Assembly (NCBI RefSeq): GCF_003334305.1
Contig: NZ_QOWS01000004.1
Source: Escherichia coli
GTDB taxonomy: Bacteria > Pseudomonadota > Gammaproteobacteria > Enterobacterales > Enterobacteriaceae
Reading direction: 5' to 3' (one strand)
Length of the DNA: 64,000 nt
The position numbers and the translations under genes were made by a program. The notes beneath the pieces are model-generated. The model was given only the letters and a program-made list of their open reading frames with translations, was not told the DNA's origin and did not search any database. Shown piece by piece: positions 57,904-58,357 of the stretch (position 1 is its first letter; the number at the start of each line of letters is the position of its first letter).

Positions 57904-58357
57904 TAACTACACTCGATGTCTTTAGAATAAAAGACAATACGAATCGCACTTTATCAATTTTCACTTAAAGTATGAACTGGATATCTTTATTCATAAGAAC
58001 TATTCATCAACAGCGTATAGAGGCGGTTATGTAAAACCACTCATTAGCCTCAAAACAAAGACAAACTTCCAGATTTATTACTTAACCAATGAATAACAAG
58101 CTTAAAAAATATACTGTTATTCTAAAGAAAAAATTAACAGGCATTAATTCAATATTAAAAAAATAATAGATTAAAATTTCTTAACGATTTAAGAATCATA
58201 CAAATAACACTTTGATTAAATTTAATTTTTTGTATCGATAATTGTGAACCTCTCTGGCATGGAGAACTATTTTGAACATGAGGTGTTACGTGGATATGTT
58301 GCTTATTACAAGTACTGCTAATATAAAAACTTGAGAAAGAGATAACGGGTTATATGG

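Follow-up and report, generated by a model that had tools for sequence, protein, structure and literature searches.

The 454 nt that separate the CRISPR2.2 remnant from the CRISPR2.3 array are probably a non-gene intervening sequence of the Escherichia coli CRISPR-II locus with a silent, H-NS-bound promoter island as its core. The sequence was studied within a window of 64,000 nt, i.e. the whole stretch of DNA that was analysed, and the annotation of ygcE, queE, yqcG and ygcG in matching genomes identifies the locus as CRISPR-II (ygcE-queE). Positions 57720-58357 of the window are 100% identical to K-12 (accession number NC_000913.3), to which window positions convert with an offset of 2,845,655. 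A sequence of 0.5 kb is already on record here, set between the CRISPR2.2 remnant and the end of CRISPR2.3 that bears the trailer, and the 454 nt are this same object; the flanking genes, the three repeats with two fixed spacers, the length of about 0.5 kb and the leader-2.3 array all agree, and no differences were found. The names CRISPR2.2 and CRISPR2.3 reportedly go back to Diez-Villasenor et al. 2010. The two elements have been described as 0.5 kb apart (Almendros et al. 2014, PMC3903273), with CRISPR2.2 consisting of three repeats with 'two invariable spacers' (PMC4489801). Neither a function for the intervening sequence nor its mosaic conservation is given in the CRISPR-II literature examined (PMC3903273, PMC4489801).

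The intervening sequence starts directly after repeat R3 of the remnant and stops one base short of the terminal repeat of array 2 (Table 1). Its GC content is 28.0% as opposed to 51.8% for the whole window, and the 454-nt segment of lowest GC content in all 64 kb falls here. The longest ORF touching it has 31 aa and a GTG start, and its A/T runs comprise A6, A6, A7 and T6 as well as an A5. The preliminary description of this DNA, i.e. a highly AT-rich non-coding gap of about 450 bp between the remnant and array 2, with long A/T runs, no ORF of note and a position on the trailer side of array 2, is therefore confirmed, the leader of array 2 being located at the queE end.

Table 1. Features of the CRISPR-II locus in and around the intervening sequence, in window coordinates
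Feature	Window position	Strand	Reference position	Remarks
Array 1 and its leader	31887-32790			leader at the high-coordinate side
GC-rich hairpin	57729-57752			9-nt inverted repeat, 100% complementary; directly past the ygcE stop codon (57719); T-run on neither strand
CRISPR2.2 repeat R1 (ATGGTTATCCCCGCTGACGCGGGGAACAT)	57765-57793	-		terminal repeat adjoining ygcE; found too in B2 strains and E. albertii
CRISPR2.2 spacer 1	57794-57825	-		32 nt, AT-rich; crRNA sense GACTTGTTATCATTTTTTAAGTTGTCGAACTT
CRISPR2.2 repeat R2	57826-57854	-		one stem pair now G.U; 5' handle ATAAACCG intact
CRISPR2.2 spacer 2	57855-57874	-		20 nt, 12 nt below normal; repeat spacing 49 vs 61
CRISPR2.2 repeat R3	57875-57903	-		AT-enriched
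Whole intervening sequence	57904-58357		NC_000913.3 2,903,559-2,904,012	454 nt
Left block	57904-58060			32.5% GC; near-invariant in E. coli; leader side of R3
Promoter island ygcE(+)/queE(-)	~57991-58337		U00096.2 2901670-2902016	published (PMC3661553 Table 1, Table S1); mapping assumes a U00096.2 version offset of ~1976 bp and is accurate to a few bp
'ygcE locus' landing pad replacement	58057-58186			primer homology arms match 58007-58056 and 58187-58236 exactly (PMC4558010 supplement)
AT-rich core	58061-58280		NC_000913.3 2,903,716-2,903,935	22.7% GC; all four A/T runs of at least 6; indels; most promoter-like sites
Right block	58281-58357			33.8% GC; final 39 nt (58319-58357) beside the CRISPR2.3 terminal repeat invariant
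CRISPR2.3 array	58358-58934	-		10 repeats, 9 spacers; terminal repeat TGGTTTATCC... abuts the intervening sequence
Leader 2.3	58935-59274	-		functional leader of array 2, beside the queE stop codon (PMC3903273, PMC3737337)

The evidence for a promoter island is largely published. The island ygcE(+)/queE(-) was scored 'A', i.e. bound by H-NS in all ChIP studies compared (Panyukov and Ozoline 2013, PMC3661553), and all 78 promoter islands bind RNA polymerase in vivo (Shavkunov et al. 2009, PMC2731890); for the H-NS occupancy and the transcription of the island, a single paper that compiles genome-wide data sets is the source. The earlier suggestion of an H-NS-bound silencing region is thus supported by published ChIP data. 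In our own consensus scan, which is cruder than the published island method, 15 promoter-like sites were found in the intervening sequence, corresponding to 33/kb as compared with 5.45/kb for the window and giving the third-densest 350-nt segment of the 64 kb. This count equals that of dinucleotide shuffles of the same sequence (13.9 +/- 4.0), and the density of promoter-like sites therefore looks like a mere consequence of AT-richness, with no sign that it evolved as such. One such site on the plus strand, TTGAGA-16-TATGGT, is located in the last 39 nt and points antisense into CRISPR2.3. No terminator-like site was called by the consensus scan in 57600-59400; of the promoter and terminator prediction proposed at the outset, the first thus returned sites no more numerous than in shuffles and the second returned none. 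The sequence resembles the promoter islands of the Ozoline group in being very AT-rich, in its many promoter-like sites, in its reported binding by H-NS and in being DNA of restricted distribution. The island proper covers only a part of it (Table 1), and it lies between convergent units, whereas most promoter islands are found upstream of a foreign gene.

Conservation along the intervening sequence is a mosaic. In a comparison of 13 strains, 44 of 221 sites were variable in the core, which matches the rate at third codon positions (0.196 in ygcE and 0.183 in queE), i.e. the core evolves neutrally. The left conserved unit (57785-58060) comprises CRISPR2.2 and the first ~157 bp; of its 276 sites only 9 varied, where ~19% would be expected (binomial P 3e-15). 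Identity of this unit reached 99% or more in 3713 of 4166 genomes, which holds for the functional leader in 2626 of 4569 and for the coding 3' end of ygcE in 977 of 5373; the CRISPR2.2 side is hence more conserved than the neighbouring coding sequence. Deep haplotypes are present on either side of this unit and none within it. Conservation beyond base composition, which the preliminary description had made a touchstone of its proposals, is accordingly strong in the 157 nt at the left and the 39 nt at the right and is not found in the AT-rich core. The published island covers mainly the variable core and does not account for conservation far beyond that of neutral sites in the left 157 nt, together with CRISPR2.2, and in the last 39 nt. 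Some sequence-specific function probably resides in these conserved ends, although the low diversity of the left unit could also reflect a past sweep.

At 23% GC, the core contains many sigma-70-like hexamer pairs purely by composition, and binding by RNA polymerase as well as by H-NS has been reported for it. H-NS may polymerise on it into a repressive filament, which would leave the pseudo-promoters unproductive and probably buffer two convergent units against each other, i.e. ygcE on the plus strand and the CRISPR2.3 pre-crRNA on the minus strand. With more C than G in the untranslated plus-strand RNA (GC skew -0.17), Rho termination of read-through from ygcE may be favoured as well. A segment of the core is replaced in K-12 integrations at the 'ygcE locus' landing pad and is therefore dispensable in the laboratory (Table 1). 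Considering that the core varies as neutral sites do and is replaceable in the laboratory, any role it has rests on composition and not on sequence.

Array 2 and array 1 have a common 90-nt repeat-plus-leader segment that is 76% identical, and the genes beside the leader of array 1 we take, from the known locus order, to be the cas genes. Since the leaders lie at the high-coordinate side of both arrays, the two arrays, like the remnant, are read on the minus strand, and on this reading the intervening sequence is also located on the leader side of CRISPR2.2. An alignment of the whole intervening sequence with leader 2.1 (z 2.55) was discarded, as it consisted of low-complexity AT alignments at non-collinear offsets. 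CRISPR2.3 possesses its own degenerate terminal repeat. In the remnant, R1 keeps the canonical hairpin and R3 folds in the canonical register of a 7-bp stem and a 4-nt loop with two compensated pairs and one G.U, in the crRNA sense only (-7.9 kcal/mol, z -2.9). All three repeats thus retain a hairpin in the crRNA sense, with an intact 5' handle in R2 and R3, and they have a common end variant, A[C/T]AT for the usual ACAC. Both spacers are the same across the 13 strains except for one 61-nt deletion that takes out spacer 1, which is identical in all 12 strains retaining it. No convincing protospacer for spacer 1 was found in phages, the best match being 24/27 (E 0.3) in a Klebsiella phage, and within the 64-kb window, which includes the cas operon, neither spacer had a target with PAM and seed match better than expected by chance.

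The intervening sequence was present in 4129 of 5426 complete E. coli genomes (at least 80% coverage, 93-100% identity). A locus of the B2 type (L003) and E. albertii (L006) lack it; both harbour one fused array with R1 joined directly to the leader-2.3 array. In another locus (L002), most of it is replaced by IS elements. A search for the fused-array spacer found it in 231 genomes, with the known B2 strains CFT073 and Nissle 1917 among the matches listed, a result that does not tell insertion from deletion. That known B2 strains as well as E. albertii are without the intervening sequence suggests either a late entry into the ancestral array after the B2 split or repeated loss by repeat-to-repeat recombination. 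A BLAST search of 57860-58360 against 50,697 phage records gave no match, and in the plasmid collection only three E. coli chromosomes mislabelled as plasmids were hit. The single IMG/VR match, from pattern scans with the left block and R3, proved to be a Mu-like prophage inserted in ygcE with its host flank, and a viral origin was set aside on this account. The sequence occurred in none of 80 queE loci from other Enterobacteriaceae genera, resembled nothing but itself in the 64-kb window, and two metagenome scans yielded no arrays built of R3-type repeats. A mobile element was likewise discarded, given that terminal inverted, direct and tandem repeats as well as a target-site duplication are lacking, and so was an eroded array, as no repeat remnants stand in register with either array and only one weak match was found (16/29 at 58241-58269).

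For the left end, two further explanations deserve attention. The left part (57904 to ~58060) may be the old leader of a once-independent CRISPR2.2, which would have taken up its two spacers beside this leader and been transcribed from it, with CRISPR2.3 and leader 2.3 as a second module next to CRISPR2.2; this reading is compatible with the promoter-island explanation of the core, and we regard it as doubtful. By repeat polarity, the left block is located exactly on the leader side of R3, and in AT-richness and strong conservation its 157 nt resemble a leader core; moreover, the common repeat end variant would be expected if the repeats had been copied from one leader-proximal repeat, and a separate terminal repeat in CRISPR2.3 is what an independent array would show. 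A plausible candidate extended -10 promoter on the minus strand (TTCATA-17-TAAAGT with an upstream TG; -35 at 57975-57970, -10 at 57952-57947), read from the sequence and sub-threshold, points into R3, while the consensus scan called no promoter in 57904-58060. The likeness to the type I-E leaders 2.1 and 2.3 is thus one of AT-rich non-coding DNA directly at the leader side of a repeat with a conserved repeat-proximal part, but it does not extend to the sequence: in local alignments evaluated against dinucleotide shuffles, the junction-proximal 120 nt scored z -0.20 against leader 2.3 and z -0.16 against leader 2.1, whereas the two leaders scored z 5.73 against each other. Adaptation in type I-E systems requires an IHF site near the leader-repeat junction, and no IHF site (WATCAANNNNTTR) with one mismatch or fewer was found in 57904-57964, the sole perfect match being at 58205 on the minus strand. 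Furthermore, none of the 13 strains has gained a new spacer, the leader-proximal R3 is the most degenerate repeat, which is the reverse of the usual pattern, and the direct junction of R1 to the leader-2.3 array in E. albertii and B2 strains also argues against an old leader. In the literature, leaders are assigned to CRISPR2.1 and CRISPR2.3 only (PMC3903273, PMC3737337). Of the degenerate leader proposed at the outset, position and polarity therefore remain, while leader similarity, the IHF consensus and spacer gain do not. More improbable still is that CRISPR2.2 and the conserved 157 nt (57785-58060) form a maintained unit with its own promoter or leader and one or two fixed crRNA-like RNAs in a non-immune role, or another sequence-specific element, next to which the AT-rich, H-NS-bound core would be a silencer or insulator. 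The evidence for such a unit lies in constraint, stronger than that of the functional leader and the ygcE 3' end, in haplotypes that flank the block without entering it and in the preserved repeat hairpins and handles, the R3 hairpin through compensated pairs. A Cascade with a shortened spacer changes in Cas7 steps, 12 nt being two of them, and spacer 2 is short by exactly 12 nt. CreA/CreR-type regulators are crRNA-like RNAs from degenerate mini-arrays, e.g. Haloarcula CreTA and cas-regulating RNAs, and Cascade-guided repression of a chromosomal target, as by these RNAs, would be an example of the role. The resemblance, i.e. degenerate repeats around fixed 'spacers', kept hairpins and 5' handle and strong conservation, is a lead only, for CRISPR2.2 differs in being neither in nor beside the cas operon (it is located ~24 kb from the cas genes), in having no adjacent toxin-like partner ORF or RNA that we could find and in the absence of even a partial PAM target from the window. 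The invariance of the block also leaves no covariation to draw on, a past sweep could also explain it, natural deletions and IS disruptions exist (L087, L002), the unit is missing from B2 strains and E. albertii, and the -10 A of the candidate promoter is mutated in one strain (L093).

Two explanations concern the whole intervening sequence. That it is decayed foreign DNA without present function, whether a mobile element, a prophage end or an eroded repeat-spacer run, is possible, if unlikely, and stands better than either account of the left end. A GC content far under the genome mean, the neutral evolution of the core and the lineage restriction, B2 strains and the outgroup E. albertii having one fused array, all point this way, as does the weak repeat-like match, which is reached by only 0.5% of shuffles. 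However, no donor emerged from the phage, plasmid and IMG/VR searches, from the queE loci of other genera or from the metagenome scans for R3-type arrays, the structural marks of a mobile element or of an in-register repeat run are missing, and a complete lack of function is at odds with how strongly both ends are conserved. An unannotated small RNA, as the preliminary description had considered, or a small protein is very improbable, the least favoured explanation of all. The only lead for the RNA is HB_171, once predicted computationally between ygcE and ygcF (PMC2731890). On either strand, RNA from 57760-58065 folds more stably than its shuffles (z -4.5, -5.2), but the three palindromic repeats account for these scores, which are similar for the two strands. 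Rfam 15 gave no match at E<=1 on either strand of 57000-60300, ARAGORN found no tRNA or tmRNA, RefSeq features were lacking under the sequence in ~4,100 matching genomes, and together with the missing terminators these results do not sustain the small-RNA proposal. As for a protein, a 20-aa ORF (57972-58034) is open in 13 of 13 strains, but the ORFs of the conserved block lack a convincing Shine-Dalgarno sequence, and the first 16 codons of this ORF show no synonymous variation whatsoever, which indicates constraint at the nucleotide and not at the protein level; the ORFs of the core are broken in the O157-type sequence.

With a promoter-island core in a known intervening sequence as the preferred explanation, the finding matters little as it stands, given that no CRISPR locus has been studied better, that this part of it is catalogued, and that the island is one among 78 H-NS-bound promoter islands on record. 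If the conservation of the CRISPR2.2 side did reflect function, a mini-array of fixed spacers in E. coli would serve something other than immunity. Of practical relevance, the 'ygcE locus', an integration site in wide use, falls inside the intervening sequence and has a set of direct CRISPR repeats on either side, and these flanking repeats could account for odd repair outcomes reported at this site.

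The 454-nt AT-rich stretch between ygcE and queE is the already known sequence intervening between CRISPR2.2, a three-repeat remnant, and CRISPR2.3 (array 2), an arrangement described previously (PMC3903273), and its core (58061-58280) has been published as a promoter island bound by H-NS. The K-12 MG1655 copy of the stretch and its flanks is identical to the window, and the region 57300-59500 shows 100 % identity to strain A7. With a GC content of 28.0 % vs 51.8 % for the whole window, A/T runs of up to 7 nt and no ORF longer than 31 aa, it is AT-rich and non-coding as the preliminary description stated, and the lowest-GC 454-nt interval of the 64 kb falls within it. 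All arrays are read on the minus strand, since a 90-nt segment is common to the array-2 leader (leader 2.3) and the repeat-plus-leader junction of array 1 (CRISPR2.1), and the array 1 leader lies on its high-coordinate side. This bears out the placement of the stretch on the trailer side of array 2; it is at the same time the leader side of the CRISPR2.2 remnant.

Features of the ygcE-queE interval, in window coordinates
Feature	Position	Strand	Description
ygcE	stop codon at 57719	plus	
Hairpin	57729-57752		GC-rich, 3' of ygcE
R1	57765-57793		degenerate type I-E repeat of CRISPR2.2
Spacer 1	between R1 and R2		CRISPR2.2; short, AT-rich
R2	57826-57854		degenerate type I-E repeat of CRISPR2.2
Spacer 2	between R2 and R3		CRISPR2.2; 20 nt, AT-rich
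R3	57875-57903		degenerate type I-E repeat of CRISPR2.2
AT-rich stretch	57904-58357		454 nt
CRISPR2.3 (array 2)	58358-58934		ten repeats
Leader 2.3	58935-59274		340 nt
queE	beyond leader 2.3	minus	

The island, ygcE(+)/queE(-) (U00096.2 2901670-2902016, intergenic convergent), was catalogued by the Ozoline group and scored 'A', i.e. H-NS-bound in all compared ChIP studies (PMC3661553 Table 1, Table S1), and RNA polymerase binding in vivo was noted for all 78 islands (PMC2731890). Window coordinates convert to NC_000913.3 with an offset of 2,845,655. U00096.2 presumably differs from NC_000913.3 by around 1,976 bp, a figure consistent with where the neighbouring queE/yqcG island lies; using both offsets, the one calculated and the other assumed, the island maps to approximately 57991-58337, inside the stretch. 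A relaxed sigma-70 scan found 15 sites in the stretch (33 per kb vs 5.45 per kb for the window), making it the third-densest 350-nt interval for promoter-like sites in the 64 kb. This density is real, but at chance level for such a composition: dinucleotide shuffles of the segment yield 13.9 +/- 4.0 sites, and a stricter promoter scan of the stretch gave no excess over shuffles.

Among the readings proposed in the preliminary description, the published score supports an H-NS-bound silencing region. Most likely, with occupancy taken from the literature, an H-NS filament would form on the core (23 % GC) and hold spurious promoters silent, and the core may thereby set the convergent transcription of ygcE and CRISPR2.3 apart. 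An unannotated small RNA, by contrast, is unsupported: neither strand matched an Rfam family (E<=1), no tRNA, tmRNA or terminator-like site was found in the stretch, and no RefSeq feature underlies its roughly 4,100 matches. The sRNA HB_171 between ygcE and ygcF (queE) is a computational prediction (PMC2731890). On both strands, RNA folds of 57760-58065 are more stable than those of shuffles (z -4.5 and -5.2) because of the three palindromic repeats; the conserved left part contains no convincing ORF preceded by a Shine-Dalgarno sequence, and the core ORFs are not kept in the O157 copy.

The third reading, a degenerate CRISPR2.2 leader on the side adjoining R3, fits by position only. Position and polarity beside R3 match a leader, all three CRISPR2.2 repeats have in common an end variant private to them, CRISPR2.3 has a degenerate terminal repeat of its own, and on the minus strand a sub-threshold candidate for an extended -10 promoter (TTCATA, 17 nt, TG-n-TAAAGT; -10 at 57952-57947) would point into R3. 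However, the 120 nt adjoining R3 lack similarity to leader 2.1 of array 1 (z -0.16) or leader 2.3 (z -0.20), whereas these two leaders resemble each other (z 5.7); furthermore, we found no IHF consensus near the R3 junction and no spacer gain at CRISPR2.2 among the aligned strains, and R3 is the most degenerate of the three repeats. Array 1 has a degenerate terminal repeat as well (31836-31865, gggagttctaccgcaggggcggggaattc), one unit past its last regular repeat, and the repeats of array 2.3 form two variants stratified by age, the three at the trailer end terminating in GAGCTC and the seven on the leader side in GAACAC.

The sole aspect of the stretch that is not ordinary is its conservation mosaic. 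When 13 copies picked to span the range of identities were aligned, variable sites made up a fraction of 0.196 and 0.183 at ygcE and queE third codon positions, 0.132 in leader 2.3 and 0.199 in the core (44/221, plus indels), vs 0.033 in the left block, 57785-58060 (9/276; binomial P 3e-15 against 0.19), and 0/39 in 58319-58357. The deep K-12-like and O157-like haplotypes flank the left block (57729 and 57781; 58066, and 58086 onward) and are not visible inside it. At the population scale, identity to the window of at least 99 % was found for 57785-58060 in 3713 of 4166 genomes, for 58061-58318 in 2352 of 3836 (1323 being below 95 %), for the functional leader 2.3 in 2626 of 4569 and for the ygcE coding 3' end in 977 of 5373. 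The absence of conservation beyond base composition, which the preliminary description had set against its readings, thus applies to the core, which behaves as neutral, composition-only DNA, and not to CRISPR2.2 with the first ~157 nt or to the 39 nt beside array 2.3, which are either constrained or recently homogenised. A plus-strand promoter-like sequence in these invariant 39 nt (58331-58358, TTGAGA-16-TATGGT) is directed antisense into array 2.3.

No function was found for the conserved parts, and of all leads only the unexplained conservation on the side of CRISPR2.2 merits an experiment. R1, R2 and R3 all fold as the canonical 7-bp stem with a 4-nt loop in the crRNA sense (R3 with two compensated pairs and one G.U, -7.9 kcal/mol), with the 5' handle ATAAACCG intact in R2 and R3. 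The window, cas operon included, holds no target for the fixed CRISPR2.2 spacers, and spacer 1 has no convincing protospacer. Nor is the left block indispensable, because a 61-nt deletion in strain 116 (L087, ~2440-2500) fuses R1 and R2 with loss of spacer 1, so that the 'invariable' mini-array is not strictly invariable, and because IS3 and IS1 replace all but the last 34 nt of the stretch in isolate VREC0864 (L002, 840-3034). The latter genome additionally shows damage to ygcE, queE and ygcG.

Of 5426 complete E. coli genomes, 4129 carry the stretch at >=80 % coverage; every copy is chromosomal, and nearly all carriers have just one. Strain 720632 (L097) has two copies, with IS1 copies flanking a yqcE-ygcE-CRISPR-II segment, and in strain 64 (L092, 1-2316) queD directly joins a 3' fragment of ygcE, implying a large deletion of the genes normally between. 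In strains of known B2 lineages (L003), R1 is followed instead by a single spacer, a single repeat and leader 2.3; this fused-array spacer was found in 231 genomes, those listed including CFT073, Nissle 1917, IHE3034 and ATCC 11775. In strain Ecol_AZ162 (L004, 2925-5425), sugar-kinase and porin genes after ygcE replace the CRISPR-II arrays, probably the sucrose (scr) locus, which in B2 and F strains lies beside queE (PMC11251922). In E. albertii (L006), a short array with leader 2.3 comes directly after R1, while SCPM-O-B-8794 (L008, 5670-5815; labelled E. coli, a GTDB species representative) has no array, repeat or leader in a ygcE-queE gap of only ~140 bp. The stretch occurred in 0/80 queE loci from other genera, and a phage collection gave no match.

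When E. albertii serves as the outgroup, insertion into an ancestral array once B2 had diverged is the more parsimonious history; repeat-to-repeat deletions arising independently would explain the absences equally easily in mechanical terms. No terminal inverted repeats or duplications surround the stretch, the metagenome collection held no arrays of R3-type repeats, and in-register repeat remnants are absent from the stretch apart from a weak match at 58241-58269 (ATTGTGAACCTCTCTGGCATGGAGAACTA; 16/29 to the repeat consensus, equalled in 0.5 % of shuffles). The latter could be a badly decayed repeat; it is polymorphic, and the O157-type copy fits the consensus less well. Neither a plasmid nor a viral origin was found: the only plasmid-collection matches are three chromosomes filed as plasmids, and the single IMG/VR match is host sequence flanking a Mu-like prophage that sits within ygcE. 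This transposable prophage (L098, 7156-11165; IMGVR_UViG_2531839665_000019), for which CRISPR-II is only host flank, encodes, as read from translations, a 680-aa transposase-like protein, a 297-aa MuB-like ATPase, and Ner-like and repressor-like proteins.

The stretch also contains the 'ygcE locus', a landing-pad integration site in K-12 (homology arms in PMC4558010 supplement). The arms match 58007-58056 and 58187-58236 exactly, and routine integration therefore replaces 58057-58186. Pad loss via intrachromosomal repair was unusually frequent here and left unexplained by the authors (PMC4558010); the direct CRISPR repeats flanking the site on both sides may be an obvious substrate.

Elsewhere in the window, the second-lowest GC content (31 %) is found between queE and ygcG (59974-60427), a segment containing a 46-aa yqcG ORF and overlapping another published promoter island (U00096.2 2903475-2903812). 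Across all 64 kb, promoter-like sites are densest at 41076-41425, where 17 lie within 350 nt; this interval covers the 5' end and upstream region of an 899-aa minus-strand ORF, presumably cas3.
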